64,000 nt of DNA, taken from IMG/VR virus record IMGVR_UViG_3300025121_000035, positions 1 through 64,000 of that record; one strand, 5' to 3'. The DNA is from a virus. The position numbers were made by a program, and so were the translations under genes. The notes under the pieces are model-generated. The model did no database searches and was not told the DNA's origin. It was given only the letters and a program-made list of their open reading frames with translations. This document shows, piece by piece, positions 18,633 through 54,433 of the stretch. The first letter of the stretch is position 1. Each line of letters opens with the position of its first letter.

Positions 18633-19166
18633 ATGAAAAATTTTAAACAATATAACGAAAGTATTAGAGATTTACTTAAAAGTAAATCAGATGAAGAAAT
18701 ATTAAAATCGTTAAAAGGATTATCTGATAATGAAAAAATTTATAATATTATATTGTATCAATTAGATTTTAATTTATTACCAAGAGATAGTGAAGGATAT
18801 TGTATATATTATGGAACATTAGGATCTAAAGATATTCATCATTATTGGGATTTTGATTGGGATAATGCAAAAATATATGAATTACCAGAAAAATTTATAG
18901 TTAAAGGTGGATTAGATTGTGATAATAAAAATTTAACAATTCTTCCAAAATATTTAAGAGTTGAAGGTAATTTAAGTTTATTAAATAATAATATTTATGA
19001 ATTACCTGATAATTTATATGTTGGTGGTCATCTTTTAGTTAGTGAAAATAATTTAACAAAATTACCAAAAGGTTTAATAGTAAAAGGAAATTTAATTGCA
19101 TTCCATAATAAAGTTGAATTAAAATTACCGGATGATGCTATAATAGGTGGTTATGTTAGTTTATGA
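18633..19166 (+). CDS. CTS-motif LRR-like repeat protein
   Basis: MKNFKQYNESIRDLLKSKSDEEI followed by LPxxLxVxGxLxxxxN repeats. Confidence 0.75.
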   Translation: MKNFKQYNESIRDLLKSKSDEEILKSLKGLSDNEKIYNIILYQLDFNLLPRDSEGYCIYYGTLGSKDIHHYWDFDWDNAKIYELPEKFIVKGGLDCDNKNLTILPKYLRVEGNLSLLNNNIYELPDNLYVGGHLLVSENNLTKLPKGLIVKGNLIAFHNKVELKLPDDAIIGGYVSL

Positions 19167-19252
19167 AAAATTTTAAACAATATAACGAAAGTGTTAGAGA
19201 TTTACTTAAAGGTAAAGAAGATGCAGAAATAGGAGGAGTTTTTTATCAATAA
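19163..19252 (+). pseudogene. 29-aa internally deleted CTS-LRR paralog
   Basis: MKNFKQYNESVRDLLKGKEDAEIGGVFYQ: family N-terminus joined to a C-terminus like DAIIGGY of the upstream gene. Confidence 0.65.
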
Positions 19253-19713: not shown

Positions 19714-19965
19714 TTAAATTTTGTAAGTACCATAATTTTCATTATTTTTTTCATCACTAATATTAGATATTCTTTCTTTTACGATAGAAGATTCTAATAT
19801 ATCTTCTCTATTTCTTTTTTGTGCAGTATATTCTTTTTTACTAGATAAAATTTTTCTTTTTCTATTAGGTTTAATATATTCTTCGATAACTTTTTCAGTT
19901 TTATCTTTAATCATTTTAGACTCATTTATATCTTGACTATTTTGTGTTTTATTTAGGTTTGGCAT
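19714..19965 (-). CDS. Hypothetical basic/charged protein
   Basis: ORF track; overlaps the end of the gp5-like gene. Confidence 0.45.
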   Translation of the reverse strand: MPNLNKTQNSQDINESKMIKDKTEKVIEEYIKPNRKRKILSSKKEYTAQKRNREDILESSIVKERISNISDEKNNENYGTYKI

Positions 19966-27179: not shown

Positions 27180-28388
27180 ATGGCAAAAAAGAAATCAACA
27201 TCATCATATTCAATATCTCAACTATCAAGCCTTATTGATAACTTAGGAGAAGAATCTAAAATCATGATTGAAAATGAAGAACATAATGGGACTATTGATA
27301 CTAGTGTTTATATACTTAATGCATTACTTTCTAAAAGTATTTTTGGTGGAGTAGCAGATGATAGAATTACTATTTTCGCAGGTGATCCAAATACTGGTAA
27401 ATCTTATATTATGTATAATATTGCCAGAAATGCACAAAAATCTGGATATTATATTATATTTATTGATACAGAACATTCAATAAATAAAAATACATTATCT
27501 GATTTTGGAATTAAAACTGATAAAGAAAGTCTTAAATTAATAACATCTAACAAAGTAGAAGATTTAAAAATCTTTTTAACTAAATTTTTAGATGAATTAA
27601 AAACTCAAAAAGTTAATGGTATTGAAGTACCTAAAATTATGATACTATTAGATAGTATTGGTCAATTAGCATCTGAAAAAGAAAAACAAGATGCACTAGA
27701 AGGTAAAAATAAAGTTGATATGACTAGAGCTAAATCCATTAAACAATTTTTTAGAATTATTAATTCTGATATGGGATATTTAGGAATTCCTTTGATTGCT
27801 TCTAATCACGTATATGAAGATACTAATTCTTTTTTCCCTACTAAAATTATGAGTGGTGGTAAAGGTGTTGAATATTCAGCATCAACTATTATATTTTTAA
27901 GTACCGCTAAATTAAAAACAGGTCGTGAAGATGATATGGATTTAAATTCAACTGGTTCAATAATTACAGCTCAAGCTAAGAAAAATAGAATGGCAAAACC
28001 TAAAAAAATTAAATTTGAAATTGATCATACTTATGGCACTAATAGATATAAAGGATTAGAATATTTCTGTACTATCGAAAATTTTGATAAAGTTGGTATA
28101 GCAATTGGTAAAAAAGTTATAAAGGAAAACGGTGAAATTGGAATTGAATCAAGTGGAAAAAAATGGTACGTTAAGCATCTTGATAAAACACTTTTTGAAA
28201 AACAATTATATAATAATAAAGTTTTTACACAAGAAGTACTAGAAGCATTAGATCCAATTATCTATAAATATTTTGATTATTCTTCATTCGAAGAAGAACA
28301 AAGTTATATAAATGATATAGATAATGTTGATGATAATATTAATATTGATCCTGATTTCGATGATATTGATAATGATGATTTGTTTTAA
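27180..28388 (+). CDS. uvsX: UvsX/RecA-like recombinase
   Basis: Walker A GDPNTGKS, FIDTE, LLDSIG, DMTRAK, MSGGKG; acidic tail. Confidence 0.9.
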   Translation: MAKKKSTSSYSISQLSSLIDNLGEESKIMIENEEHNGTIDTSVYILNALLSKSIFGGVADDRITIFAGDPNTGKSYIMYNIARNAQKSGYYIIFIDTEHSINKNTLSDFGIKTDKESLKLITSNKVEDLKIFLTKFLDELKTQKVNGIEVPKIMILLDSIGQLASEKEKQDALEGKNKVDMTRAKSIKQFFRIINSDMGYLGIPLIASNHVYEDTNSFFPTKIMSGGKGVEYSASTIIFLSTAKLKTGREDDMDLNSTGSIITAQAKKNRMAKPKKIKFEIDHTYGTNRYKGLEYFCTIENFDKVGIAIGKKVIKENGEIGIESSGKKWYVKHLDKTLFEKQLYNNKVFTQEVLEALDPIIYKYFDYSSFEEEQSYINDIDNVDDNINIDPDFDDIDNDDLF

Positions 28389-30305: not shown

Positions 30306-31394
30306 ATGATAAATGAAGATACATATAAAAAATTTATAGAAACATTTAAAGTTGATGATTGGGAAGTAGAAACAGATAATGGATGGTCAGATATAAATGA
30401 AATAGGTATGACTATAGAATATGATGAATGGATATTAAAAACAAAAAATACTGAATTAATAAGCGCAGATAAACATATAGTATTTAAATTTGATTATAGT
30501 GAGGTATATGTTAAAGATTTAAAAATTGGTGATGAAATTATTACCAAATTTGGTACAGAAGAAGTAATATCTGTTTATAAATCAGATAAAAAATCTAATA
30601 TGTATGATTTATCATTAAATGATAAAAATCATAGATATTATACTAATGATATATTATCACATAATTCAATGTGGTTACAAAATATAGCTCACCATATTGC
30701 AGATGAAGGTTATAATGTTGTATTCGTAACATTAGAAATGGCTTCTTATAAAGTAATGAAAAGAATGGGATCAATGAGATTAAAAATTGATTCTACACAA
30801 TATGATGATTTAAGCAAAGATTCTACATTTATTAAAAATAAAATTAATGAATTAAAATCTATGTCAACTGGTAATAAATTATTTGATACTGGAAAAACAG
30901 GTAAAATATTTGTTAAAAAATATCCTACTAGTGATTGTTCAGTTACTGATTTAGAAAATTATATTAAAAAGTTCGAGCAAAGTAAAAAACTTAAAATAGA
31001 TGTTATGATTATAGATTATATAAATATTATGTCTATTGAAAAGGGATTTAATCTAGATACGATGTTATATCTTAAAGGAAAACATTTAGCAGAAGGTATA
31101 AGAAGATTAGGTGATAAATATGATATTTGTATGATTACAGCAACACAAACAGATAAATCCGTATGGGGAGCAAATGATATAAATCTTGATGATATACCAG
31201 AAAGTAAAGCAATCGCGGAAGCTGCTGATAGTGTGTGGGCTATTATTAGAAATCCACAAATGAAAAAAGAAAATATTTATAGATTAAAAATTTTAAAACT
31301 AAGAGATGGTGAACATCATGAAGAACAAATAAAATTTGATTTTAATACTAAATATTTAACTATGGAAAACGATATTTTAGTCGGTACAAAATAA
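30306..31394 (+). CDS. dnaB: 120-aa split-intein C-fragment + helicase C-part
   Basis: ADKH block B and MYDL..YYTNDILSHN|S, then TLEMA, IIDYINIM, ATQT, ESKAI helicase motifs. Confidence 0.9.
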   Translation: MINEDTYKKFIETFKVDDWEVETDNGWSDINEIGMTIEYDEWILKTKNTELISADKHIVFKFDYSEVYVKDLKIGDEIITKFGTEEVISVYKSDKKSNMYDLSLNDKNHRYYTNDILSHNSMWLQNIAHHIADEGYNVVFVTLEMASYKVMKRMGSMRLKIDSTQYDDLSKDSTFIKNKINELKSMSTGNKLFDTGKTGKIFVKKYPTSDCSVTDLENYIKKFEQSKKLKIDVMIIDYINIMSIEKGFNLDTMLYLKGKHLAEGIRRLGDKYDICMITATQTDKSVWGANDINLDDIPESKAIAEAADSVWAIIRNPQMKKENIYRLKILKLRDGEHHEEQIKFDFNTKYLTMENDILVGTK

Positions 31395-34040: not shown

Positions 34041-37000
34041 ATGAAAAAAACATATAGTAAAATACTAAAAATTAATAAAAAAGGTAAGGGTAATGTATAT
34101 GATTTTACAGTTCAAAATACACATAGAATTCTAGCTAATAATTTTTATACATCTAATTGTAGTATTAATCATCCTGATGCAGAAGATTTTATAGATGCTA
34201 AATTAGTAGCTGGTAAAGTAACAGGTGCTAATGTATCTGTTAAATTAACTGATGAATTTATGAAAGCTGTAAAATCAGATTCAGATTATTATCAAACTTT
34301 TCCTATTAATTATGACATATCATCTTATACTGATAGATCTAATCTTAAATATGGAGTTATAGAGGAACATAGTTTTCATAATATTGTAAATGATACTTTT
34401 GAAAAAGTTCAAGTTAAAAAAATCAAAGCTAAAGATTTATGGGAAAAAATTATTCATAATGCTTGGAAATCTGCTGAACCTGGTTTAATGTTTTGGGACA
34501 CTATTGAAAGAGAAGCAATACCAGATTGTTATAAAGAGTTTGGTTTTAAGACAGTTAGCACAAATCCGTGCATTGTAGGAGATACATTAATTGCAGTTGC
34601 TGATGGTCGAAATTATGTATCAATAAAACAATTAGCAGAAGAAAATAAAGATATTCCAGTATATTCATCAGATGATAATGGCAATCTTGTTATTAAAACT
34701 ATGAGAAATCCACGAATAACTGGATATAATAAACAAATTTATAAAATTACAATAGAAGGTGGTCATACAATAAGAGTAACAGATAATCATAAATTTATAC
34801 TTAAAAGTGGTATTGATAAAGAAGCAAAAGATTTAAAATATGGTGATAGTTTACAAATATTAAATAAAGTTAATTATTTTGCTAAAAATAATTCAAATTC
34901 TTATTATTCACTATCATCTAATGGTAAAGGCTATAAGGAACATCATCATATAGCTGAATATAATATTGGTCGTAAATTATTTGAAAATGAAGTTGTTCAT
35001 CATATAGATTATATTGGTAAAAATAATAACCCAAATAATTTAGAAGTGATGACTAAAAAAGAACATGATACGTTACATATTAAAGATATGTTAAGTGATA
35101 AAAACCCATATCATAAAATGACTGATGATTGGAAATTTAATTTTGCATCACATCCTGGCGAAACAAATCCTAATTTCAGTGGATTATCAAATAATGATAT
35201 TAAAAACCATGCAATTTTACTAACAAAAAAATTAAATAGAAGATTTAGTAAAAAAGATTGGATTGATTATGCAAAAGAAAATAATTTACCACAATATTTT
35301 AGTTCATTTAGGTTATTTGATACAATTATATCATTATCTAAATTAGTTGCTAGTGAACTTGATATTAAATTTATACATGATGATCCTAGATTAGTTAAAT
35401 CTTATAATAATGCTTTAGATAATGGTTATAATGCTGAAATCAAAGATAATATGGTTATTGTTGAAAAAATATGTGAAAATTGTGAAGAATCATTTTGGGT
35501 AGATTACCAAAAAAGAGAAATATCATTTTGTTCACATAAATGTGCATTAAAATATATTAATAACAATAAAGAAATAGATATTAAAAGATCAAATTCATTA
35601 AATAATACTTATAATAAAAAAGGAGAAATAACTAAAGAAACACAATTAAAAATTTATTCTGATTTAAAATTCGAATTAGGTAGAACACCTTTATTAAAAG
35701 AATGGGAAAATGAATGTAAAAATAATAATGTTCCTTTTAGACTAAAAACAAAATATGGGTTTAATTCATTTAAAAAAATAAAAGAATCTTCTGATTTTTA
35801 TAACCATAAAGTAATATCTATTGAATTAGATGGTTTTGAAGATGTTTATAACGGGACTGTTGATGATACACATAAATTTTATGCTGGTGGATTTGAAGAA
35901 AAAACAAAATCAGGTAAGTCGAAGACAATCAGTGTGTTACAAGAAAATTGCGGAGAGATTCCGTTAAATCCATATGATTCTTGCCGACTATTAGCTATAA
36001 ATTTATATTCATATGTTGATAATCCTTTTACAAAAGATGCTAAATTTAATTTTAAATTATTTAAAGAACATACTCAATATGCACAAAGATTTATGGATGA
36101 TATTGTTGATTTAGAAATTGAAAAAATTGATGAAATTTTGAAAAAAATTGATGCAGATCCTGAACCTGAAGAAATGAAAATTGTTGAAAGAAATCTATGG
36201 ATAAAAATTAAAGAAAAAGCTATTCAAGGTAGACGAACTGGATTAGGTATTACTTCTGAGGGCGATATGTTAGCTGCACTTGGTATTATTTATGGAACAC
36301 CTGAAGCAACTGAATTTGCAGAAAAAATTCATAAAACATTAACAATAGAGGCCTATAAATCTACTATTATTATGGCAGAAGAAAGAGGTGCTTTTTTAGT
36401 ATGGGATTTTGAAAAAGAATATAATAATCCATTTATTCAAAGAATTATGGGTGAATTAGATGAAGATTTTTTACATCGTTATAAAATAAAAGGTAGAAGA
36501 AATATAGCATTATTAACTATTGCTCCTACAGGTTCTGTATCCATAATGACACAAACTACTTCTGGTATTGAACCAGTATATTTAGTTTCTTATAAAAGAA
36601 AAAGAAAAATTAATCCTAATGATAAAAATGCAAGTATTGATTATACTGATAGTGAAGGAATAGCTTGGGAAAGATATAATGTATTTCATCCTAAATTTAA
36701 AATTTGGGCTGATATTAATGGTTATGATTCAACTAAATTAGAAAAATTAACATCTGAAGAATTAGATGTAATAATTAAAAAATCACCTTACTATAAAGCT
36801 ACATCTAATGACGTTGATTGGGTCGAAAAAGTTAAAATGCAAGGTGCTATTCAAAAATGGGTTGATCATTCAATATCTGTAACAGTTAATTTACCAAATG
36901 ATGTTACTGAAGATATAGTATCAAAAGTATATCAAACTGGTTGGGAATATGGATGTAAAGGTATTACAGTATATCGTGATGGTTCTAGAGATGGTGTTTT

Positions 37001-37595
37001 AGAAACTAATAAACCTGAACAAAAAGTTAATATTTTTAGAGAAATTAATGCACCACGTAGACCTAAAAATCTTAAATGTGAAGTTATAAGATTTAATAAT
37101 AAAGGTGAAAAATGGATTGGTTTTTTAGGTCTTTTAGAAAATAAACCTTATGAAGTTTTCAGTGGATTATTAGAAGCTGTTAATATACCTAATTATGTAG
37201 ATTATGGTGAAATAGTTAAAATAAAAAAAGAAGAAGGTGAAATAAATTCTAGATATGATTTTAAATATATTGATAAAGATGGTTATACTCAAACATTTAA
37301 TGGATTATCTAGAGCATTTAATCGTGAATATTGGAATGTTGGTCGTATGATAAGTGGAATTTTAAGACACGGTATGCCTTTACCTAATGTTATGAGAATT
37401 ATTGACAAATTAGATTTTGGAGAAAATTCAAATGATATAACTTCATGGAAAGCTGGTATTAAGAGAATGTTAAAAAAATACATTAAAGATGGAACTTCTG
37501 TTCATGGTTCTAAATGTCCTCAATGTGGAAATACAGAATTGATGTTTAAGGAAGGGTGTGTTAGCTGCGAATGTGGTTGGAGTAAATGTGATTAA
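34041..37595 (+). CDS. nrdJ: 39-aa split-intein C-fragment + NrdJ C-part, containing a second contiguous intein
   Basis: VYDFTV..NFYTSN|CSINHPD; STNP|C...EN|CGE; TIAPTG; C-terminal Zn ribbon. Confidence 0.9.
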   Translation: MKKTYSKILKINKKGKGNVYDFTVQNTHRILANNFYTSNCSINHPDAEDFIDAKLVAGKVTGANVSVKLTDEFMKAVKSDSDYYQTFPINYDISSYTDRSNLKYGVIEEHSFHNIVNDTFEKVQVKKIKAKDLWEKIIHNAWKSAEPGLMFWDTIEREAIPDCYKEFGFKTVSTNPCIVGDTLIAVADGRNYVSIKQLAEENKDIPVYSSDDNGNLVIKTMRNPRITGYNKQIYKITIEGGHTIRVTDNHKFILKSGIDKEAKDLKYGDSLQILNKVNYFAKNNSNSYYSLSSNGKGYKEHHHIAEYNIGRKLFENEVVHHIDYIGKNNNPNNLEVMTKKEHDTLHIKDMLSDKNPYHKMTDDWKFNFASHPGETNPNFSGLSNNDIKNHAILLTKKLNRRFSKKDWIDYAKENNLPQYFSSFRLFDTIISLSKLVASELDIKFIHDDPRLVKSYNNALDNGYNAEIKDNMVIVEKICENCEESFWVDYQKREISFCSHKCALKYINNNKEIDIKRSNSLNNTYNKKGEITKETQLKIYSDLKFELGRTPLLKEWENECKNNNVPFRLKTKYGFNSFKKIKESSDFYNHKVISIELDGFEDVYNGTVDDTHKFYAGGFEEKTKSGKSKTISVLQENCGEIPLNPYDSCRLLAINLYSYVDNPFTKDAKFNFKLFKEHTQYAQRFMDDIVDLEIEKIDEILKKIDADPEPEEMKIVERNLWIKIKEKAIQGRRTGLGITSEGDMLAALGIIYGTPEATEFAEKIHKTLTIEAYKSTIIMAEERGAFLVWDFEKEYNNPFIQRIMGELDEDFLHRYKIKGRRNIALLTIAPTGSVSIMTQTTSGIEPVYLVSYKRKRKINPNDKNASIDYTDSEGIAWERYNVFHPKFKIWADINGYDSTKLEKLTSEELDVIIKKSPYYKATSNDVDWVEKVKMQGAIQKWVDHSISVTVNLPNDVTEDIVSKVYQTGWEYGCKGITVYRDGSRDGVLETNKPEQKVNIFREINAPRRPKNLKCEVIRFNNKGEKWIGFLGLLENKPYEVFSGLLEAVNIPNYVDYGEIVKIKKEEGEINSRYDFKYIDKDGYTQTFNGLSRAFNREYWNVGRMISGILRHGMPLPNVMRIIDKLDFGENSNDITSWKAGIKRMLKKYIKDGTSVHGSKCPQCGNTELMFKEGCVSCECGWSKCD
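34569..35948 (+). mobile_element. Contiguous 460-aa intein with HNH endonuclease at the RNR catalytic NPCGE Cys
   Basis: CIVGDTLI...VTDNHKF...VVHHID..NN..NL...VYNGTV...QEN|C. Confidence 0.9.
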
Positions 37596-37619
37596 TTTGA
37601 TTTTAATAATTATTTTTAA

Positions 37620-37652
37620 GGTCTATTGAATAATTTTCAATAGACTTTTTTA
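37620..37652 (+). terminator. Rho-independent terminator after nrdJ
   Basis: GTCTATTGAA-loop-TTCAATAGAC followed by a T run. Confidence 0.7.
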
Positions 37653-37664
37653 TATATATGTAAT

Positions 37665-38153
37665 ATGAAAACATTTAAACAATATAACGAGTCAATAAAA
37701 GATTTACTTCAACCGAAATCTAATGATGAAATAATTAAAGCATTAGAAGGTTTATCTGATTCAGATAAGATAAAACAAATAATTATAAATCAATTAGATT
37801 ATGATTTATTACCAGAAAATTTAGTTGTTGATGGTGATTTATTTTGTAATAATAAAAGATTAACTAGTTTACCTGATAATTTAGTTGTTAATGGTTATTT
37901 AAATTGTAGTTTTAATGAATTAACTATTTTACCAAAAAATTTAACTGTTAATGGTGATTTAGATTGTAGATATAATAAGTTAACTAGTTTGCCTGAAAAT
38001 TTAGTTGTTGATGGTTATTTAAATTGTAGAAATAATCAATTAACTAGTTTGCCTGAAAATTTAGTTGTTGATGGTTATTTAGATTGTAGAAATAATCCTT
38101 TACTAGAAGATATTAAAAAACCAAAAGGTGTAACAGGATACTTTTATAATTAA
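37665..38153 (+). CDS. CTS-motif LRR-like repeat protein (five 21-aa units)
   Basis: MKTFKQYNESIKDLL; LTSLPENLVVDGYLxCxxN repeats. Confidence 0.8.
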   Translation: MKTFKQYNESIKDLLQPKSNDEIIKALEGLSDSDKIKQIIINQLDYDLLPENLVVDGDLFCNNKRLTSLPDNLVVNGYLNCSFNELTILPKNLTVNGDLDCRYNKLTSLPENLVVDGYLNCRNNQLTSLPENLVVDGYLDCRNNPLLEDIKKPKGVTGYFYN

Positions 38154-38196
38154 TTTTTGAATTTAATATATACATATGTTAAAACAAGAACTAAAT

Positions 38197-38643
38197 ATGA
38201 TAAAAACTTTTAAACAATATAATGAAAGTGTAAAAGATTTACTGATTGGTAAATCTGATGAAGATGTAAAAAAAGGATTAGATAATTTACCTAATAATAA
38301 AAAAATAGAAACAATTATTAAGTATCAATTAGATTATTCTTTATTACCTAGAAATAGCGAAGGTATTTGTACTTATTATGGTCATTTAGATTGTAGTTTT
38401 AATAAATTAACTAGTTTGCCTGACAATTTAACTGTTAATGGTCATTTATATTGTTATGATAATCTATTAACTAGTTTGCCTGATAATTTAATTGTTAATG
38501 GTTTTTTAAATTGTAGACATAATCAATTAAAAAAATTACCAGATAATTTAATTGTTAAAGGTGATTTATATTGTGGTTATAATAATCAATTACCAGAAGG
38601 TATTAAAAAACCAAAAGGTGTAAAAGGGAATCTTTATAAATAG
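38197..38643 (+). CDS. CTS-motif LRR-like repeat protein
   Basis: Start at MIKTFKQYNE preferred, by analogy with the duplicated upstream region of 38687. Confidence 0.8.
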   Translation: MIKTFKQYNESVKDLLIGKSDEDVKKGLDNLPNNKKIETIIKYQLDYSLLPRNSEGICTYYGHLDCSFNKLTSLPDNLTVNGHLYCYDNLLTSLPDNLIVNGFLNCRHNQLKKLPDNLIVKGDLYCGYNNQLPEGIKKPKGVKGNLYK

Positions 38644-38686
38644 TTTCTAAATTTAATATATACATATGTTAAAACAATAATTAAAT

Positions 38687-40741
38687 ATGATAAAAACTTT
38701 TAAACAATATAATGAAAATATTATAGATTATCTTAAGCCTAAATCTAAAGATGAAATTATTAAAAATATTAAAATTTATATAAAAAAATATTATTTAGAA
38801 AAAGGTTATATTGTTTTACCACACTCAGAATATATTTGGATCGGTAAAGATGAAAATAATAATACAAAACTTATTACTTCTTTACATATAGAAGGTGTTC
38901 GTGTTTTACTATATAATAAAAATATGATTAAAAAAGATTCTTATATAATACCATATGAAGTATTAAGTACTGATATAATAGATAATATAACATCAGCTTT
39001 ACGATATATAAAAAAACCTATAAATGAGGGAATTACTAATATACTAAAAGGAAAATCAAAAGATGATATATTAAAAACTATTAGCAAAATTGATATTAGT
39101 AATGATATATTTTATGTTATAAAAAAATATACTGAAGTATATCCACAAGAAGTAGAATTTTTTGTAGAATTTATTAATAATTATCCGATAAAATCATATT
39201 TATATGATGATATATATAATTATTTTTATAATGGATATAATGTTTTTTCAAGCATTAAACAATATAAAAATATTTTAGATGATAAAGATAAAGTAGAAGA
39301 TTTAATTAGTGTTTTAGATGCTAGATTAAATAGTTTAGATGATGATAATGATTTATTACCAAATTTTGATATAATTATATCATTTATAAAAGATTTACTT
39401 AAAACAAGTTGGGCTACAAAAATTATATATGAATCTGTAAAAGATTTACTGAAGGGTAAATCAGATGAAGAAATAGAAAAAACATTAAAAGAATTAAATA
39501 TATTAGAAAAAGTTAAAAAAGTTAAATCATATAATTTAAATGATAAATATATGCCATCAGATAAAGAAATTCAAAAAGCATTAGAAGATAATTGGAGAAA
39601 TGTTAATTTGAAAAATGTTATTTATATTGATGATAAAATTTTATTAGATGTATCATTAAAAACTTTAAAATTAGCACATCTTGTAATAAAATATAAATTA
39701 CCCGAAAATTTTTTTCCACAAGAATATATTGATGTAAAAAACAAAACAATTTTAAATATTAAAAAATATTATGATAAATTACGTAAATTATTAATAAATA
39801 AGAATATAAATAATGAAAATAAATTTTATTTACATTCTGATTTAAAACAAGATGAATTATTTTTAAGGAATAATGAAGAAGGTGATGAAGAAGGAATAAC
39901 TGAACATATTATTTATGTATTATATCCTGAACAAGTAGGTGTTGATTTAATTTTATATGATATTGATGAATCTAAATCATATAAGTTATATTATGAAGAT
40001 TTGAATCTTTTTATTTTAAAAAAAATTGATGACATATTAACTAATGTATTTTATAATTTTAATCAACAAGGACAAACAAAAGAAGATCAAAAAGAAATAA
40101 ACGAAAATGTTAAAAATTTGTTGAAGGGTAAATCAGATGAAGAAATAGAAAAAGCATTAAAAGAATTAGATATATTAGAAAAAGTTGAAAAAGTTAAATC
40201 ATATAATTTGGATGATAAATATATGCCATCAGATGAAGAAGTTAAAAACTATTTGGATAATTTAGATAAAACAGATATTGAAAAAGTACAATTAATATTT
40301 AAATATGAATTATCTGAAAAATTCTTACCTAAAAATTATGAATTATATAAAAAAAGGTATATTAAAAATATTAAAAAATTTTTTAAAAAACTATATGATA
40401 ATCAAATAAAATATAATATTGGACAATCTGAAGATTATTATAAACCACCAAATATTGATAATTTTTATTTTAATATTGATGATTTAAATATTAAAAATAT
40501 TTATTCTTATCGTTTATCGTATAAATATGATATGCATTATATTAATCGTATATGTTATAATAATATATCTACATCAGTTATAGATGAAGAAGATATGGAT
40601 GATGATAATATAGATGATAATATAGATAGTTATGAAACTATACCTTATGAAAATTTAAATATATTTGATTTAAAAGAAATATATTTACTATTAAAAACAT
40701 TTATAAATAAAAATATTGTAAAGCAATTCATATATTTTTAA
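38687..40741 (+). CDS. CTS-motif multi-module protein (four xxE-SVKDLLKGKS modules)
   Basis: Module headers at the N-terminus and near 39020, 39425 and 40097. Confidence 0.75.
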   Translation: MIKTFKQYNENIIDYLKPKSKDEIIKNIKIYIKKYYLEKGYIVLPHSEYIWIGKDENNNTKLITSLHIEGVRVLLYNKNMIKKDSYIIPYEVLSTDIIDNITSALRYIKKPINEGITNILKGKSKDDILKTISKIDISNDIFYVIKKYTEVYPQEVEFFVEFINNYPIKSYLYDDIYNYFYNGYNVFSSIKQYKNILDDKDKVEDLISVLDARLNSLDDDNDLLPNFDIIISFIKDLLKTSWATKIIYESVKDLLKGKSDEEIEKTLKELNILEKVKKVKSYNLNDKYMPSDKEIQKALEDNWRNVNLKNVIYIDDKILLDVSLKTLKLAHLVIKYKLPENFFPQEYIDVKNKTILNIKKYYDKLRKLLINKNINNENKFYLHSDLKQDELFLRNNEEGDEEGITEHIIYVLYPEQVGVDLILYDIDESKSYKLYYEDLNLFILKKIDDILTNVFYNFNQQGQTKEDQKEINENVKNLLKGKSDEEIEKALKELDILEKVEKVKSYNLDDKYMPSDEEVKNYLDNLDKTDIEKVQLIFKYELSEKFLPKNYELYKKRYIKNIKKFFKKLYDNQIKYNIGQSEDYYKPPNIDNFYFNIDDLNIKNIYSYRLSYKYDMHYINRICYNNISTSVIDEEDMDDDNIDDNIDSYETIPYENLNIFDLKEIYLLLKTFINKNIVKQFIYF

Positions 40742-40859
40742 GATAATCAATAGTTAAAGAAAACCATTAAATATTTAATTTAATGGACGATTTTTATCAA
40801 AACAGGCTTCAATTATTTAATATATAAAATAAAACAAAAAAAATAATAAATTAGAAATT

Positions 40860-41045
40860 ATGGAAGAACGTATAACATTAGATCAACTTATTGAATTAGT
40901 CGAAGAAGTTAGAAAAGATTATGATAAGTTTTATGATAAAGGAGTTAAAGCTGCCGCTACTCGTCTTAGAAAAGGATTACAAGATATAATCAAAATATCG
41001 AAAGATATGAGAGTTCAAGCAATCGAACACAAAAAATCATTATAA
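40860..41045 (+). CDS. Histone H1-like Hc1-family nucleoid protein
   Basis: KGVKAAATRLRKGLQ..K..KDMR motif typical of Bacteroidota Hc1-like proteins. Confidence 0.75.
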   Translation: MEERITLDQLIELVEEVRKDYDKFYDKGVKAAATRLRKGLQDIIKISKDMRVQAIEHKKSL

Positions 41046-41049
41046 AAGA

Positions 41050-41083
41050 AAAAAAGGGATATATAATTTATATCCCTTTTTTT
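41050..41083. terminator. Bidirectional terminator
   Basis: AAAAAAGGGATATA-loop-TATATCCCTTTTTTT. Confidence 0.75.
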
Positions 41084-41084
41084 G

Positions 41085-41100
41085 TGTTCCACGTGGAACA
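41085..41100. promoter_or_regulatory. parS centromere-like site
   Basis: Perfect 16-bp palindrome TGTTCCACGTGGAACA matching the chromosomal parS consensus; GC-rich island in AT-rich intergenic DNA. Confidence 0.85.
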
Positions 41101-41132
41101 ATTATTTAATTTTTATCTTTTTTATATAAATC

Positions 41133-41184
41133 GTCAAATTCATCTATTAAACTAAAGATTTATCGATTTTCTTTGACGTATAAT
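41133..41184 (-). mobile_element. Orphan IS200/IS605 left end
   Basis: TTTAT|ATTATACGTCAAAGAAAATC-hairpin-GATGAATTTGAC. Confidence 0.7.
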
Positions 41185-41209
41185 ATAAATTATACTCTTT
41201 GATAAGTAA

Positions 41210-41563
41210 TTATTCTACTTTTAAAATATCTTTAAACGCTTTTTTAAAACTTTCTTTTGGCATACCACCATGTGACATTTGAGGTTGTTCGTTCATAGGT
41301 ATAAATAACAGTGATGGAATACTTTGAATACCAAATGCTGATGCTAATTCGTGTTCTTCTTCAGTATTAATTTTGTATATATCTATTTTTCCATCATATT
41401 CTTTACTTAATTCATCAAGAATAGGCGCAATAGATTTACAGGGCATACACCAGTCTGCATACCAGTCAATTAAAGTAGGTTTATCACCTTCAAATTTCCA
41501 ATCTTTATTTTTTTCATAATCGAATACTTTTGTTTTAAATGTTTCTGTTGTTAAATTTTCCAT
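41210..41563 (-). CDS. trxA: Thioredoxin
   Basis: DWYADWCMPCK, GIQSIPSLLF; Bacteroidota-type N-terminus. Confidence 0.9.
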   Translation of the reverse strand: MENLTTETFKTKVFDYEKNKDWKFEGDKPTLIDWYADWCMPCKSIAPILDELSKEYDGKIDIYKINTEEEHELASAFGIQSIPSLLFIPMNEQPQMSHGGMPKESFKKAFKDILKVE

Positions 41564-41604
41564 AATTTTATAATTATTTTTTTAGTTATATGTTTCCTTA
41601 ACAT

Positions 41605-41645
41605 ATCAATTATAATGCCTAATAATTAAATCGGCAACATTGTCA
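41605..41645 (-). promoter_or_regulatory. Sigma54-like promoter with upstream TGACA box (trxA)
   Basis: TGACAATGTTGCCG-N11-AGGCATTATAATTGAT; same architecture at dnaK and Hsp20. Confidence 0.5.
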
Positions 41646-41694
41646 TATTTATATAGTTTTAAATTTGTAAAGTTTAATTTAATATATAATAGAT

Positions 41695-42456
41695 ATGAAA
41701 ACATTTAAACAATTTAATGAAAGTGTAAAAGATTTACTGATTGGTAAATCTGATGAAGAAATTATTAGATTATTAAATAGATTATCACCAAATGAAATGT
41801 TGATTACTTCTATTCAAAATAATTATATTTATGGTGTAAAAAAATCTATAGAATTAGGTGCTTCCATTGACACCGAAGAATCTAAACCAATTAAGATAGC
41901 GAGTGAAAAGGGATATGTAGATATAGTTAAAATATTACTAAATAATAATGCTAATCCATTTAAAGTACATATTATAAATAGTGAAAAATATGATGAAATA
42001 TATAATTTAATTTCTAAATATAGAAATAAGTCAGTTAATGAATCAGTAAGAGATCTACTTCAACCAAAATCTGATGATGAAATGATTAAAGCATTAGAAG
42101 GTTTATCTGATTCAGATAAGATTATACAAATAATTAAATATCAATTAGATTATGATTTACTACCTAGAAATAGTGAAGGTATTTGTACTTTTTATGGTCA
42201 TTTAGATTGTGAACAGAACCAATTAACTAGTTTACCTGATAATTTAGTTGTAAATGGTGATTTATATTGTTATCATAATCAATTAACTAGTTTACCAGAA
42301 AACTTAGTTGTTAAAGGTAATTTAGATTGTAGTTATAATGAATTAAAAAGTTTACCCGAAAATTTAGTTGTTAAAGGTGATTTATATTGTAGAGATAATC
42401 CGTTACCAAAAAATATTAAAAAACCAAAAGGTGTAAAAGGAGAACTTATATTATGA
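41695..42456 (+). CDS. Two-module CTS protein: ankyrin-like repeat module + LRR-like module
   Basis: PIKIASEKGYVDIVKILLNNNANP, then internal VNE-SVRDLLQPKS and 21-aa repeats. Confidence 0.75.
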   Translation: MKTFKQFNESVKDLLIGKSDEEIIRLLNRLSPNEMLITSIQNNYIYGVKKSIELGASIDTEESKPIKIASEKGYVDIVKILLNNNANPFKVHIINSEKYDEIYNLISKYRNKSVNESVRDLLQPKSDDEMIKALEGLSDSDKIIQIIKYQLDYDLLPRNSEGICTFYGHLDCEQNQLTSLPDNLVVNGDLYCYHNQLTSLPENLVVKGNLDCSYNELKSLPENLVVKGDLYCRDNPLPKNIKKPKGVKGELIL

Positions 42457-43091
42457 TAAAAACATATAAACAATATAATGAGTCAGTAAAAGATTTACTT
42501 AAAGGCAAGTCCGATGAAGATGTAAAAAAAGGGTTAGAAGGATTATCTGATTTAGATAAAATATCTACTATCAGTAGATATAATATAAATCAAAAATTTT
42601 TACCTTCAGATGAAAATATTAAAAAAATTTTAAGCAAATTTAAATTATTTGATATATTATTTTTTGTAAAAGGAAACAATCTACCTATTAGATTTATGCC
42701 ATCAGATGAAGAAATAGAAAAAGAATTAGATAAATTAACATATAAAAAAAGAATAGATACAATAGAAAGATTTAAATTATCAGATAAATTTTTACCAAAA
42801 AGAGCAAAAACTCAAAGATTACAAACTATACAAAAAATTCGTGAAATAATAAAACAACGCGGATCATTTAATAACTTTAAAAGTACATATATTTTAGATA
42901 GATTCATTTGGTGGGATAATAATTATGATGCACTTTTATTAGCAGAAATAGGATATAATGGAATAGTATGTTATGGTTATATTAATCAAATAGATAATAA
43001 AATTAAATATAAATATGATGATTTGGATTATTTTACAGTTAATTTTATTATGAAAGTATTAAAAAATCAAATTAAAGAAGGTAGATTTTAA
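42453..43091 (+). CDS. CTS-motif protein with PSDEEI helical repeats
   Basis: MIKTYKQYNESVKDLLKGKSDED. Confidence 0.75.
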   Translation: MIKTYKQYNESVKDLLKGKSDEDVKKGLEGLSDLDKISTISRYNINQKFLPSDENIKKILSKFKLFDILFFVKGNNLPIRFMPSDEEIEKELDKLTYKKRIDTIERFKLSDKFLPKRAKTQRLQTIQKIREIIKQRGSFNNFKSTYILDRFIWWDNNYDALLLAEIGYNGIVCYGYINQIDNKIKYKYDDLDYFTVNFIMKVLKNQIKEGRF

Positions 43092-43166
43092 CCTAAATCA
43101 TGAACTATCAACTACACTAAATATGCTTTGTTAGTCAAAAAATTTTAAACAGATTTATAAAAATAT

Positions 43167-43826
43167 TTAATAACTTAATATAAAATTTACATATACAACA
43201 TAAGATACTTTAACACACTTTCCTCTTTGTTTTCCTGGAATATAGTCTGGTAAATTATTGATAACTCTTAATGCTTCTTTATCTAAATTTGGATCTACAC
43301 CTTTTAATATTTTAACATTAGATACTTTACCTTTTTCATTTACAACAAATTGAACATATACTTTACCTTGTATATTATTTTCTTTACATATTTCCGGATA
43401 TTTAATATTTTTTGTTATATATGTATGAACATTACCTTGTGTAAATATTGGCATTTCTTCCACAATAATAAACGGAACATCTGATATTTCTTCTTCATCA
43501 TCTAATTCAGGTATATTAATTTCTATATCTTCATTTGATTCTGTATTTTCTATTTCCAATTCTTCTTTTATTTCTATATTATCTGCAACTATATTTATAA
43601 CTTCTATAACTTTTGGTATAGGGGGTTTTATCTTTTCAGTTCTTGTAATAGGAATTATTTCTTCGTCAATTATAGTTATAGGTAATTCACCTAAATCATG
43701 TATAGTTTTAGTACTATTCCATTCAAAAGCAATTAACATTAATACTAATGCAATTACAAAACCTATTTGTAAAAAAATACTTCTTTGGTTTTCTAAATTT
43801 ACTTTATCTGATTTTTTCTGTTCCAT
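43167..43826 (-). CDS. tonB: Energy transducer TonB (Bacteroidota type)
   Basis: N-terminal TM helix, acidic/Pro linker, VEEMP, YP..IQGKVYVQFVV..G, PGKQRG. Confidence 0.85.
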   Translation of the reverse strand: MEQKKSDKVNLENQRSIFLQIGFVIALVLMLIAFEWNSTKTIHDLGELPITIIDEEIIPITRTEKIKPPIPKVIEVINIVADNIEIKEELEIENTESNEDIEINIPELDDEEEISDVPFIIVEEMPIFTQGNVHTYITKNIKYPEICKENNIQGKVYVQFVVNEKGKVSNVKILKGVDPNLDKEALRVINNLPDYIPGKQRGKCVKVSYVVYVNFILSY

Positions 43827-43867
43827 AATTTTTAATTTTTATTATAATAAAACAAAAACCATACCAA

Positions 43868-44707
43868 TTATAGACTATCAAAATATGTCATATCACTGAT
43901 ACTTGAATCATCTGACCAGTGAGCTGATGTAAATTTACCTTTCGGAGATACAGTAACACCAATTAAATGTCTTTTATCAGATATAGATTTTGTAAAATCA
44001 TATATAAAATACTGATTAGTAAATGGATTAACATAACTATTCCACATACTTTCAGATGTACTAATACACCAATGTTTTGATCCAATTGCACAAGATGCTT
44101 TATAATTATTTACTTGTAATACTAATAATTCTGGTGTAGATATTTTAATTTCTATATCACCGTTTTCTACAAAACTATCTATTTTTTTTAACATTGTTTC
44201 TAAATTATAATTACCAGATAAATTAGTGATTAGTGATTTAGTATCATTAATTAAGTCATGTACATTTTTATATTTACCACCTTTTTTAGAATAGAAATCT
44301 ATAATATTTTTAGACCATTGGCTATTTAATTTAATTAATGATTTTAATTCATCATTAGCTAATTCTCTTGTTCTTGATGGTAATGCTTTTAATACTTGAT
44401 TAATCTTTGTATTAATTTCAAAATCTTGTATATAATCAAATAAATCTTCAAACTTTTTAAAAGTATCTACTGGTTTATCTATTTTAATTTCATCTAATAA
44501 TTTTAATAATTCTTCTAAACGACTAATATCAATTCTTTCTTCAAAATACCATTCGGTAAATTTTCCTAAATATCCGGGATTATTTTTAAATAATTCCTTT
44601 AATTTTAAGAATCTTTCATCATTTTCTTTAATATGATGTTTTCTTAATACTGTTAAAGCTTTCTGCTTATTTTCGAATATTTTATATGTTGCTAAATTTT
44701 TAAACAT
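43868..44707 (-). CDS. Hypothetical protein with CTS-like N-terminus (TYKIFE) and ASC..GS.HWCIS motif
   Basis: ORF track; duplicated AATATATA motif upstream. Confidence 0.7.
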   Translation of the reverse strand: MFKNLATYKIFENKQKALTVLRKHHIKENDERFLKLKELFKNNPGYLGKFTEWYFEERIDISRLEELLKLLDEIKIDKPVDTFKKFEDLFDYIQDFEINTKINQVLKALPSRTRELANDELKSLIKLNSQWSKNIIDFYSKKGGKYKNVHDLINDTKSLITNLSGNYNLETMLKKIDSFVENGDIEIKISTPELLVLQVNNYKASCAIGSKHWCISTSESMWNSYVNPFTNQYFIYDFTKSISDKRHLIGVTVSPKGKFTSAHWSDDSSISDMTYFDSL

Positions 44708-44781
44708 TTTGAATATATTTATTTTTATTATTATATATTAATTTTTATTTTTATATATTAATTTTTATTTTTAAAAAATTG

Positions 44782-45393
44782 TTAAAGTTTACCGTTTATA
44801 TCATCTTTATAAAATTCATTACTATCTTGATATATCTTTTTTAATATAATGACACTTTCTGGTATTTTTACAAATTCTTCGTATTGTTGATTAAAACAAG
44901 CAAACCAACCATGTACAATCAAATCGTCAGGTACTTCTTTGATATAATTTTCTGAAACATCTAAATTACCATAAACTGTAAATTGTTTAGGCAATTCTGT
45001 TAATAAATTTTCTGATAAAAAAATATCATTACCTACTTTAAGAGATTTTGGTATGTTTCTAATATTATTTCGGCAACAATAGAAATTTTTATCAACTGTT
45101 ATATTTTTACCTATTTTTTTCATTCCTGTAAAATTAACTTTTACTGAACCATGAACGTGTAAATTATTAGGTAGTTCTTCTACTATTTGTTCTTCTATAT
45201 TTAAATCTTCATGAATATGACAAATGCCATTTTCGTCTCTTGGTAATAATTCAAATGGTAAATTATATTTAATAATTTCTATTTTCTTCTCTTCATCATT
45301 TAAATGTTTTAATTTATCTAATATATATTCATATGATTTACCTTGAAGTGAATCATATATATTCTCATTTATAAATTCTTTAAAATTTTTCAT
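44782..45393 (-). CDS. Divergent CTS-motif LRR-like protein
   Basis: MKNFKEFINENIYDSLQGKS, LLPRDENGIC, 21-aa repeats. Confidence 0.75.
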   Translation of the reverse strand: MKNFKEFINENIYDSLQGKSYEYILDKLKHLNDEEKKIEIIKYNLPFELLPRDENGICHIHEDLNIEEQIVEELPNNLHVHGSVKVNFTGMKKIGKNITVDKNFYCCRNNIRNIPKSLKVGNDIFLSENLLTELPKQFTVYGNLDVSENYIKEVPDDLIVHGWFACFNQQYEEFVKIPESVIILKKIYQDSNEFYKDDINGKL

Positions 45394-49755: not shown

Positions 49756-51543
49756 ATGAATAAAAAATCGATATTAAATTTATTTAATGAGAAGCAACGA
49801 AGAAAATTTTATATAGAAAAACATCAACCTGATTTATATTCTGAATTATTATTTTATAATTTAAAGTTGGGTATAAATAATTTTACTCAATTATGTTATC
49901 ATTTTGATAATAATATTAGTAATATTCCTTTATGTAAAATATGTCAAAAAAAAGAATTAAAATTTAAAGGATTTAATCAAGGATATACTAAATATTGTTC
50001 TACTAAATGTGCTATGAATGATGAAGAATTAATTAATAATAGAAATAAAATAACAATAAAAACTAATTTAGAAAAATATGGTGTAGATAATCCTATGAAA
50101 TTAAATGAAATTAAAGATAAAGTTAAAAAAACTAATTTAGAAAAATATGGTGTAGATAATCCTATGAAGTTAAATGAAATTAAAAATAAAGTTAAAAAAA
50201 CTAATTTAGAAAAATACGATACTGAATATTATTTTCAAACCGATGAATTTAAAACTAAAGTTAAATTGTATAGTATTAACAAATATGGTATTAATCATTA
50301 TAATCAACATAATGATATAATAAACAAAAAAAATAAAACTAATTTAGAAAAATATGGTGTAGATAATCCTATGAAATTAGATAAAATTAAAGATAAAATT
50401 AAAAAAACTAATTTACAAAAATATGGTTATGATCATCATATGAAATATAAAAAATCATTAGGCTTATTAGAATATTTTTTTGACAAACAAACATATAATT
50501 ATTATAATAAACATATCAATAAACAAAAATATCATTTATTATCAATTAAAAATAAAAAATTAAAAATTAAACATAATAGTTGTAATAAAGTATTTTTTAT
50601 AGATAAACAATTATTTTATTTAAGAGATAAGATAAAATGTGAAATATGTACAGAATGTAATCCAACTATTGGAAAAAATATTTCGTATATGGAAAAAGAT
50701 TTATTAAAATTTATAGAAGAAAATTATAACAGTAATATTTTAAAAAATATTAAAAAAATTATAAAACCATACGAATTAGATATTTATTTACCTGATTTAA
50801 AATTAGCATTCGAATTTAATGGATTATATTGGCATAATGAAATTAATAAATCAAACGATTACCATATAAATAAAACTAATTTATGTGAAGAAAATGGAAT
50901 TCAACTTATACATATTTATGAAGATGATTGGATTTATAAACAAGATATAGTTAAATCAATGATATTAAATAAATTAAATATTACATTAAATAAAATTTAT
51001 GCAAGAAAAACTGAAGTAAAAGAAATAACAGATAATAAATTAGTTAGAAAATTTCTGAATGAAAATCATATTCAAGGTTTTGTTGGTTCAAAAGTTAAAA
51101 TAGGTTTATTTTATAAAAATGAATTAATTAGTTTAATGACTTTTGGTAAAATAAGAAAACCACTAGGTCAAACATCAAATGAAAATGATTGGGAAATGTT
51201 AAGGTTTTGTAATAAGCTAAATACAAATGTTATAGGCGGTGCAAGTAAACTGTTTAAATATTTTATTAAAAATTATAAATATAATAGTATAATAACATAT
51301 GCAGATAGGAGTTATTCAACTGGTAAATTATATGAAATATTAGGATTTATATATTCACATACATCTAAACCAAATTATAATTATATTATAGATAAAGTTA
51401 AATATCATAGATTTGGATTTAGAAAAGATATTTTAGTTAAAGAAGGATACGATGCTAATAAAACAGAACATGAAATTATGTTAGAAAGAGGAATTTATAG
51501 AATTTATAATTCTGGTAATTTAAAATATACATATGAAAATTAA
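49756..51543 (+). CDS. Putative homing endonuclease (KTNLEKYGVDNPMK repeats, Vsr/Hef-like nuclease, extra C-terminal domain)
   Basis: ELDIYLP..AFEFNGLYWH..IHIYEDDW; repeats shared with 7227. Confidence 0.7.
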   Translation: MNKKSILNLFNEKQRRKFYIEKHQPDLYSELLFYNLKLGINNFTQLCYHFDNNISNIPLCKICQKKELKFKGFNQGYTKYCSTKCAMNDEELINNRNKITIKTNLEKYGVDNPMKLNEIKDKVKKTNLEKYGVDNPMKLNEIKNKVKKTNLEKYDTEYYFQTDEFKTKVKLYSINKYGINHYNQHNDIINKKNKTNLEKYGVDNPMKLDKIKDKIKKTNLQKYGYDHHMKYKKSLGLLEYFFDKQTYNYYNKHINKQKYHLLSIKNKKLKIKHNSCNKVFFIDKQLFYLRDKIKCEICTECNPTIGKNISYMEKDLLKFIEENYNSNILKNIKKIIKPYELDIYLPDLKLAFEFNGLYWHNEINKSNDYHINKTNLCEENGIQLIHIYEDDWIYKQDIVKSMILNKLNITLNKIYARKTEVKEITDNKLVRKFLNENHIQGFVGSKVKIGLFYKNELISLMTFGKIRKPLGQTSNENDWEMLRFCNKLNTNVIGGASKLFKYFIKNYKYNSIITYADRSYSTGKLYEILGFIYSHTSKPNYNYIIDKVKYHRFGFRKDILVKEGYDANKTEHEIMLERGIYRIYNSGNLKYTYEN

Positions 51544-53551: not shown

Positions 53552-54433
53552 ATGATTTCTAAATATAATGATTTTCAATTATTGAATGAAGCAATACTAA
53601 ATGAAGAATTTGATTTTAATCAAATTAAAAATTCTATAAAAAATGTTGCCGATAAAAATAAAGTATTAAACTATTTAATCAATAAATTTAACAAAGCCAA
53701 AAATCAACCTTTTAAAAAACATATAGCTACATTATTAATTGCGGTTTTCTTAATAAATTTCGGATTAAAATCAAATAAGTGGGCAAATAGATTATCTGAT
53801 GAAAAAATTCAAGAATTAACTACTAAAATAGCTGCACAAGAAATTTTATCACAAGAAAATATGGTTCAATTTTTTAATACTAATCTATATACAAATGAAA
53901 TAGATAATGTAGATGAATCAGAACCTCGTAAATCTATATTTGATAATCAGGTATTTGTAGATGCGACAAATTTACATACATCAGAAAAAGCAATAAAACT
54001 TATTAAAAAACACGAAAAGTTAAGATTAAAAGCTTATAATATAGGGGATAACAGAATTACAATTGGATATGGTCATGCTGAACCAATTCAAACATCAAGA
54101 TATAAAATAGGTGATAGAATAACTAGGGAACAAGCAGAAAAATTATTTAAAAAGGATTTAGAAATTGCAGAAAAAGGAATTAAAAGAATGTTTGTTCGTT
54201 GGAAAAGTGCCGGAATTAAGATAGAATTAACACAAAGTATGTTTGATGCTATGGTATCTATGACATTTAATATGGGAGTTTATGGAATGGCTACAACTAA
54301 TTTTATTCAATACATTAAACAAGGTGATTTTGAAGCAGCAGCCGATTCCATAAAAACAACAAAAATAAACGATAAGTTTCCTGGTTTAGAAAATAGACGA
54401 GAAGATGAATATGAATTGTTTATAGGTACTTAA
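53552..54433 (+). CDS. GH24 lysozyme-like protein with CTS-like N-terminus
   Basis: IKKHEKLRLKAY..ITIGYGH..FDAMVSMTFNMG..GLENRREDE; N-terminus MISKYNDFQLLNE. Confidence 0.85.
   Translation: MISKYNDFQLLNEAILNEEFDFNQIKNSIKNVADKNKVLNYLINKFNKAKNQPFKKHIATLLIAVFLINFGLKSNKWANRLSDEKIQELTTKIAAQEILSQENMVQFFNTNLYTNEIDNVDESEPRKSIFDNQVFVDATNLHTSEKAIKLIKKHEKLRLKAYNIGDNRITIGYGHAEPIQTSRYKIGDRITREQAEKLFKKDLEIAEKGIKRMFVRWKSAGIKIELTQSMFDAMVSMTFNMGVYGMATTNFIQYIKQGDFEAAADSIKTTKINDKFPGLENRREDEYELFIGT

Follow-up and report, generated by a model that had tools for sequence, protein, structure and literature searches.

The stretch of viral DNA examined here, positions 1-64,000 of IMG/VR record IMGVR_UViG_3300025121_000035 (hereafter the window; the full record, G000, is linear and 84,043 bp long), carries a family of paralogous genes whose products join a short leader and a helical N-terminal module (N-module) to tandem 20-residue units of the leucine-rich repeat (LRR) kind. 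The three close genes (A at 37665, B at 38176/38197 and C at 41695) and the diverged copies at 18633 (D) and 44782 (E) that were listed in the initial annotation are all present, and genes D and E have leader, N-module and N-cap in common with the family at the protein level. Two paralogues with no LRRs (F and G) and a short remnant accompany them:

18633..19166, + strand: gene D (177 aa), a diverged member with family leader, N-module, N-cap and an alternative C-cap.
19163..19252, + strand: 29-codon remnant with leader, the start of the N-module and the last C-cap residues.
37665..38153, + strand: gene A (162 aa), with leader MKTFKQYNE followed by S, helical N-module, five 20-aa LRR units (37809-38108) and the C-cap IKKPKGV.
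38176..38643, + strand: gene B (155 aa), with N-module, LLPRNSEGIC N-cap unit, three LRR units and C-cap; its family leader starts at an internal Met, 38197.
38687..40741, + strand: gene F (684 aa), a non-LRR paralogue with an N-terminal leader and two internal copies of the leader junction and module (39410-39559 and 40082-40231).
41695..42456, + strand: gene C (253 aa), with leader, N-module, a weak ankyrin segment (Ank_2 21 bits, under the cut-off), a second leader junction and N-module (42010-42165), N-cap unit, three LRR units and C-cap.
42453..43091, + strand: gene G (212 aa), a non-LRR paralogue with leader and repeated helical modules.
44782..45393, - strand: gene E (203 aa), the most diverged member, with leader MKNFKEFINE followed by N, and degenerate LRR units (phrog_21719, E 0.0072).

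The 29-codon open reading frame (ORF) looks like a family member that has collapsed by deletion, and its start matches that of gene D in a 71-bp repeat (18631-18701 and 19161-19231, 93% identity). A related phage contig, L007 (Ga0208375_1000751), harbours four consecutive family genes at 3033-5618, three of them with the leader variant MKKYNEFINEN; arrays of the family thus recur in relatives. An F-box-like reading of the N-module found no match in Pfam and was dropped.

Tandem Repeats Finder returns a period of 60 bp (20 aa), and not the 63 bp initially proposed, for gene A (37809-38096, 4.8 copies, 83% matches), gene B (38378-38583, 3.4 copies, 79% matches) and gene C (42196-42391, 3.3 copies, 83% matches). 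In register the unit reads LPxNLxVxGxLxCxxNxLTS, with five canonical units in gene A and three each in B and C; the C-cap IKKPKGV closes all three genes, and the LLPRNSEGIC N-cap unit occurs in B and C and is missing from A. A profile of the 60-nt unit, run over the 84 kb of the record, yields 15 matches at E<1e-3, all within genes A-D (the next match has E 0.18), including 18882-18939 (E 1.6e-5) and 19002-19055 (E 2.9e-4) in gene D. Gene E is reached by this DNA profile only at E 0.3-0.7.

The protein sequence aligns well with solved LRR solenoids. Searches with phmmer against PDB sequences match Vibrio FlrP (8z5u chain 0, E 2.3e-20) and SlrP (4puf, 1.8e-12), as well as IpaH (3cvr, 1.5e-8), SspH1 (1e-6), YopM and designed LRRs, and the HMMER alignment to SlrP places the family's L11-x12-C13-x14-x15-N16-x17-L18 opposite an L-x-V-x-x-N-x-L strand. 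Given tandem units within the 20-29 residues of LRRs, a LxxLxLxxN-type motif and significant similarity to known solenoids, the units are assigned, from these alignments, to the short bacterial-type (LTSLP) LRRs. With the LRR domains of the flagellar protein FlrP (a beta-solenoid LRR according to bioRxiv 10.64898/2025.12.04.692373), SlrP, IpaH, SspH and YopM, the family has in common its 20-residue units, an LTSLP-like connector and the LxxLxLxxN-type strand. Unlike those bacterial proteins, it lacks both a Sec signal and a catalytic domain (E3-ligase or other), places Cys at the second strand 'L' (94/95 units) together with a V-x-G turn, and is phage-encoded, about 150 aa long and headed by its own leader and helical segment.

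With regard to relatives elsewhere, a scan of genome contigs for cellular cousins found three loci in Bacteroidota metagenome-assembled genomes (MAGs), and the one of these that was inspected encodes an 858-aa generic LRR surface protein with neither leader nor module. A viral-contig scan with the family alignment gave no match. Amongst 50,697 GenBank phage records, gene A is matched through its LRR segments alone, in four records that represent two phages each filed twice, one of them being Edwardsiella phage Edno5, in which the matching gene is found in the early region, with the repressor on one side and exo/recT on the other. Gene G has no match in the same set of records, and no description of the family was found in the open-access literature (main texts, with supplements outside the search).

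The variation within the repeat is concentrated at particular positions. Amongst 106 units (95 unique) from 44 family proteins, the entropy of the unique units is highest at position 14 (3.25 bits), followed by positions 12 (2.94 bits), 8 (2.80 bits), 15 (2.60 bits), 17 (2.56 bits) and 10 (2.34 bits), and amounts to 0.08-0.9 bits at scaffold positions, with L1, P2, L5, L11, C13 and N16 at 0.08-0.32 and L11, C13, N16 and L18 near-invariant. These highly variable positions correspond to the x residues of the LxxLxLxxN motif, which by convention line the concave, binding face of an LRR solenoid, and the motif register would accordingly place the variable residues on that face. As the initial annotation had observed, the codons after G, L and C are largely of one form: in the 11 canonical units of genes A, B and C, 39 of the 44 codons at positions 10, 12, 14 and 15 are NNT and the other five AGA, with GAA and CAG found in the N-cap unit of gene C. 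At position 17 only 7% of codons are NNT, most being NAA (CAA, AAA, GAA).

Two properties of these codons have to be kept apart. The initial caveat that AT-rich codon bias might produce the NNT pattern by itself holds for the third base, for amongst 21,399 codons from long ORFs those for N, D, Y, H and F end in T in 90-95% of cases, and Arg is AGA in 78%. It leaves unexplained the narrow residue set: at positions 10, 12 and 15, 113 of the 129 codons (88%) encode N, D, Y, H or F, vs 29% in the genome, whilst Lys and Ile, which account for about 10% of genome codons apiece, hardly occur there. Trp (TGG) stands at position 12 in 7 of 95 units. The N/D/Y/H/F preference looks like a trait of the LRR subtype, since the same residues fill 21 of 36 equivalent positions in a 45%-GC Bacteroidetes MAG LRR protein (the 858-aa surface protein above, taken as a control for composition), there with both NNT and NNC codons (one protein, and hence a small sample).

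This narrow set also bears on the idea that the paralogues are simply redundant and drift neutrally at unconstrained surface positions, with no binder repertoire at all. The surface x positions of any LRR tolerate change, as such drift requires; however, neither the restriction to N/D/Y/H/F nor the near-absence of Lys and Ile would follow from it, and variation at these positions recurs in 44 proteins drawn from many samples. Furthermore, first-base heterozygosity at codons 10, 12 and 15 (0.66-0.71, vs 0.28-0.33 at the second base) exceeds that of the synonymous third bases of scaffold codons, which is at most 0.56. Neutral drift is therefore very unlikely as the explanation. In 60 unit pairs differing by at most 8 nt, non-synonymous codon differences number 142 in the four hypervariable codons, 130 in the six semi-variable codons and four in the scaffold, alongside 68 synonymous differences, a distribution that fits point substitution and selection on top of shuffling.

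The constancy of the scaffold, by contrast, needs no special mechanism. What had been described as a near-constant DNA scaffold is mostly conserved protein combined with extreme codon bias, codon identity at conserved residues being 0.44-1.0 as observed vs 0.45-0.90 as expected from the codon usage of the genome: P2 shows 0.44 vs 0.45, L1 0.55 vs 0.67 and C13 0.91 vs 0.90, with values above expectation at V7 (0.74 vs 0.46), G9 (0.85 vs 0.46) and three Leu positions.

Since the variable codons can mostly be derived from AAT by changes at adenines, the initial annotation had offered, next to repeat shuffling, mutagenesis of the type performed by diversity-generating retroelements (DGRs), in which an adenine-specific mutator would rewrite AAT codons from a template repeat. 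The prevalence of NNT codons accords with this, as does Ser at position 14, which is AGT in 13/13 cases vs 30% AGT genome-wide; in addition, the record represents about 12% of its genome, so a reverse transcriptase could sit elsewhere. That no reverse transcriptase lies in the window was confirmed, and PF00078 has no match in the whole 84,043-bp record (84 kb) nor in the related IMG/VR records G001 (112,560 bp; 112.6 kb) and G002 (29,514 bp; 29.5 kb), a search that covered these three fragments, each 5-23% complete, and not the relative locus L003. No non-coding template copy of the unit exists in the 84 kb either, all 15 profile matches being within genes A-D. The methods of PMC5006420 define a pair of variable repeat (VR) and template repeat (TR) by at least 5 adenine-specific mismatches and at most 1 other, and 0/400 repeat pairs from a self-BLAST (at least 50 bp, at least 5 mismatches, both strand senses) conform to this.

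The distribution of the changes within the unit argues in the same direction. Across the 43 unique DNA units (51 in all) taken from the window and from loci L004-L008, variation affects 38 of the 60 columns; the most frequent base in these columns is A for 17, T for 14, G for five and C for two, i.e. something other than A in 21 of the 38; six adenine columns that a DGR would mutate are at least 93% invariant. A DGR would also hit both adenines of the supposed AAT, whereas the second varies half as much as the first, and it would be expected to spread over NNT codons, of which N, D, Y, H and F account for 5/16, rather than to leave almost nothing else at positions 10, 12 and 15. AGA, TGG, GAA and NAA codons occur at variable positions, T-ending codons are the norm of the genome, and strain differences fall in clustered tracts, with 7 of 26 changes involving no A. 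The share of differences that include A (76-80% observed vs 70% from composition) was also tried as a test and judged uninformative, given that mutated VRs need not retain A; the column-based and VR/TR tests replaced it. The variation is thus not confined to adenines, and the DGR explanation is largely refuted, as far as the fragments allow, and scarcely credible as a source of the diversity. The family is like DGRs of the Bordetella phage Mtd type in its phage context, its hypervariable binding surface and its many NNT variable codons, and differs from them in that no reverse transcriptase, TR/VR pair, adenine specificity, C-type-lectin fold or Ig fold is found, and in that every repeat of several genes takes part in the variation, which in DGRs sits in one C-terminal VR.

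The other half of the initial proposal, repeat shuffling, stands. Direct strain comparison with two other metagenome assemblies locates exchanges inside repeat units:

38027..38028, no strand: breakpoint within unit 4 of gene A, assembly L005 vs the window.
38515..38516, no strand: breakpoint within unit 2 of gene B, assembly L004 vs the window.

Over window positions 36770-38027, assembly L005 shows a single mismatch in 1258 bp; beyond them it runs into a different last unit and C-cap. L004 has 0 differences over 37207-38515 (1309 bp) followed by 26 differing columns over 38516-38633 (118 bp). At the protein level, alleles have units in common in differing order and number, as the unit maps show:

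Gene A: 1-2-3-4-5
P0002: 1-2-3-6
P0001: 7-8-9-10-3-6
Gene B: 18-19-20-21
P0016: 18-19-22-23
P0018: 11-16-17

Because breakpoints fall inside repeat units and the unit maps of alleles differ, shuffling by ordinary recombination between copies is supported. The proposed mosaicism of N-caps and C-caps is likewise borne out: the second N-module of gene C has 90% DNA identity to that of A and 70% to that of B, and its N-cap unit is 85% identical to that of B. The apparently collapsed 29-codon remnant at 19163-19252 adds to the evidence for recombination. Lamprey variable lymphocyte receptors (VLRs) and plant R-gene clusters are recombining LRR repertoires, and the family is like them in its constant LRR scaffold, hypervariable concave x positions, cassette swapping and changing unit number. 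Unlike in lamprey VLRs, there is no evidence of programmed somatic assembly; the mosaicism is germline and distinguishes phage strains and paralogues from one another. VLRs are also mentioned in PMC5006420.

A second theme of the family is its common head. All seven family genes, including F and G, start M(I)K(T/N)(F/Y)K(Q/E)(Y/F)(I)NE and continue S/N-(V/I)-K-D-L-L-x-G-K-S-D-E-E; the relatives P0004, P0028 and P0029 start MKTFKEFINE. The phage T4 internal proteins IPII and IPIII start MKTYQEFIAE, and IPI starts MKTFKEF (NC_000866). Positions 4 and 7 of the family leader are aromatic and it ends in hydrophobic-x-Glu (YNE, FNE, INE, VNE, IYE), E9 being at least 90% conserved across 18 modules. 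It therefore resembles, as a resemblance only, the leader of T4-type internal proteins in its length of about 10 residues, its positions 4 and 7 and its Glu-ending motif. PMC9026906 reports that the first 10 residues of T4 IPIII suffice for packaging, that residues 4 and 7 of the T4 leader serve targeting and residues 8 and 10 processing, and that gp21 cuts after Glu in L/I-x-E; PMC3012670 describes T-even internal proteins as highly diverse defence proteins with only the capsid-targeting sequence (CTS) in common. Like T4 IPI, IPII, IPIII and Alt, the family has a conserved leader of about 10 residues heading otherwise diverse proteins, with the same aromatic positions and the same hydrophobic-x-Glu end. 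In contrast to T4, a conserved 38-aa helical module follows the leader, the cargo consists of repeat-protein binders, the leader junction recurs within long ORFs (C and F), and no gp21-like protease was found in the fragments, with packaging and cleavage being suggested here by the leader sequence.

The same head is carried by proteins other than LRRs. A profile of leader and module (18 sequences, 50 positions), searched against 1.84 billion representatives, matches 674 representative proteins at E<=1e-3 (187 of them at <=1e-10 and 14 at <=1e-30), with up to 12 module copies in one protein; of nine top matches that were scanned, six have ankyrin repeats and three have no Pfam match. Beyond the window, four tandem ankyrin genes at 64124-68563 of the record have no leader, and a fifth ankyrin gene at 74400-75107 starts directly with the KDFLIGKSEEDI module (124-4563 and 10400-11107, respectively, in the coordinates of L024). 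Two observations within the window touch on the leader. A Phage_lysozyme protein (53552-54433, + strand), with its domain at residues 152-286 behind a 150-aa N-terminal extension, begins with the leader-like MISKYNDFQLLNE and is possibly another leader-tagged cargo. A 57-bp tandem repeat (55013-55185, 3.0 copies, 96% matches) lies within an ORF at 54956-55354 whose product starts with the leader-like MKDKIHIQKFNEH.

Taken together, these genes are very probably phage paralogues encoding proteins of about 150 aa built from 20-aa LRRs, with a fixed scaffold and variable x positions, diversified by ordinary substitution and homologous recombination. The explanation as a whole, which adds the suggested loading into the capsid to LRR binders varied by shuffling, is given a probability of roughly 0.7. 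The scaffold residues L1, P2, L5, V7, G9, L11, C13, N16 and L18 are held constant whilst positions 10, 12, 14 and 15, flanked by 8 and 17, vary, the residues there being chiefly Asn, Asp, Tyr, His, Phe, Ser and Arg, which gives each copy a different binding surface. Single-base substitutions, mostly at the first codon base, are probably kept by selection, and homologous recombination among near-identical 60-bp units and paralogues adds, removes and swaps units and caps. The leader, for its part, may act like the T4 capsid-targeting sequence, in which case the protein would enter the prohead, lose its leader to the head protease cutting behind the Glu, be injected with the DNA and bind host proteins, for example defence components. 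This last part, from capsid loading through to host-protein binding, is put at a little below even odds. On leader resemblance and binder scaffold, the most likely function would be that of virion-delivered binders of host proteins; a role in anti-defence, as raised in the initial annotation, may be made more plausible by the T4-CTS-like leader.

Several points weigh against this explanation. All Pfam LRR models score below their gathering thresholds (LRR_1 15.4 vs 20.6, LRR_4 17.2 vs 27, LRRNT 14 vs 25.8); short repeat models often miss divergent units. That the variable residues lie on the concave face is deduced from the conventional reading of the LRR motif and from HMMER alignments with SlrP and FlrP, and the substitution comparison is no formal selection test, mixing repeat units with paralogues and using synonymous sites that are constrained by codon bias. 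As to the capsid, the resemblance of the leader spans 7-10 residues and was a post hoc observation, the T4-type prohead protease PF03420 is found in 0/3 records (the fragments described above), and the match to Gp23 (PF07068) is sub-threshold, at 12.9 bits, and confined to G002. Finally, as judged by gene G against the GenBank phage records, the module occurs in no cultured phage.

Two further functions were weighed against loading into the capsid. The LRR and ankyrin proteins might be eukaryote-like effectors, the host bacterium living on or in protists or animals and the proteins having their targets in the eukaryote, not in the bacterium. Phage ankyrins can act on eukaryotic cells, and phage WO has a eukaryotic association module; here, LRRs and ankyrin repeats stand on the same leader and module family, the GC content is about 22%, and a weak relative (L003) lies on a contig binned as a giant-virus MAG. 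However, inspection of the sequences by eye shows no signal peptide or secretion domain, the metagenomes come from groundwater and soil, the LRR proteins of cells that come nearest are ordinary surface proteins of Bacteroidota, and the T4-like leader points to capsid loading, so that an effector role is unlikely. Slightly more unlikely still is that the proteins are external parts of the virion, i.e. tail or fibre adaptors that recognise the host surface and whose variation tracks receptor diversity. Gene D does lie directly downstream of tail-fibre-like genes, beside the baseplate block, and host recognition has been suggested as the role of LRR domains in phage Goslar and in a Vibrio phage. 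Against this, proteins of about 150 aa have no fibre, collar or baseplate-attachment domain, the main array is surrounded by nucleotide-metabolism and chaperone genes, and the same leader and module also head ankyrin repeats and a lysozyme, which is a better fit to internal cargo.

The genomic setting is that of a tailed phage. Beyond the family and the lysozyme, the following features were identified in the window:

15854-17509: S74 chaperone domain.
19949-20803: ORF with a Phage_base_V domain (28.4 bits vs a cut-off of 23.8).
27180-28388: RecA-like protein.
30306-31394: DnaB-like protein (phrog_19).
38162..38172, 38652-38662 and 41678-41688, + strand: promoter-like motif TTTAATATATA upstream of genes B, F and C, respectively.
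43167-43826, - strand: protein with a TonB C-terminal domain (TonB_C, 67 bits) and an N-terminal hydrophobic segment.

Two Dam-type methylases and one ParA are also encoded in the record, and the nearest Atlas clusters are all viral, most commonly Uroviricota. A giant-virus origin, raised by the low GC, an Hsp70, the ribonucleotide reductase and the relative on the giant-virus MAG contig, was rejected because of Phage_base_V, the phage lysozyme, S74, the DnaB-like phrog_19, the Dam methylases, ParA and the Uroviricota neighbours. From its gene content, the record is assigned to an uncultured huge tailed phage, of which it is a fragment, with very low GC (18-28% along its length). CheckV puts completeness at 12%, and relatives are located on contigs of 616,614 and 669,408 bp, which suggests a genome of several hundred kb. 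Parts of the stretch are present in 13 sequencing-run rows from six studies (groundwater and soil metagenomes), and no habitat or strain is claimed. The TonB_C protein is unusual in a phage and hints at a Gram-negative host; together with the closest cellular LRR relatives it points to a host possibly in the Bacteroidota.

The motif TTTAATATATA occurs at 12 sites in the window vs 3.11 expected, a count reached in 0/100 shuffles. Its sites include 19258, 38162, 38652, 40816, 41678, 53519 and 63687, and it stands 10-45 bp upstream of many genes, amongst them the lysozyme gene, 19293 and genes B, F and C. The motif probably represents a class of phage promoter. Elsewhere in the window, the ribonucleotide reductase ORF (34041-37595, + strand, 1184 aa) appears to contain an inserted segment with Hint-like and HNH-like motifs, judged by eye and a possible intein, and 69-bp (23-aa) tandem repeats at 7495-7771 and 50058-50451 lie within DUF7487 proteins (7227-8087 and 49756-51543).

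With regard to the meaning of these findings, the DGR explanation, if true, would have been the first DGR on an LRR scaffold, and the evidence against it removes a false lead. What the family provides is a clear case, from nature, of cassette recombination being used by a phage to diversify a binder scaffold, with a logic as in other LRR repertoires. Its regular Cys-ladder LRR, in which each 20-aa unit offers four variable positions, is also a compact natural scaffold for binders. A much broader picture, doubtful at present, is that huge tailed phages may maintain a modular arsenal of capsid-loaded, protease-released LRR and ankyrin binders behind a T4-CTS-like leader and docking module, some as polyproteins, with faces diversified by cassette shuffling into a germline 'binder library' that would enter the cell along with the injected DNA and neutralise variable host defence proteins. 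If the leader does load the capsid, the anti-defence strategy of the T4 internal proteins would extend to designed-looking LRR and ankyrin binders in huge phages, and the family would constitute a defined candidate set for finding their bacterial targets.

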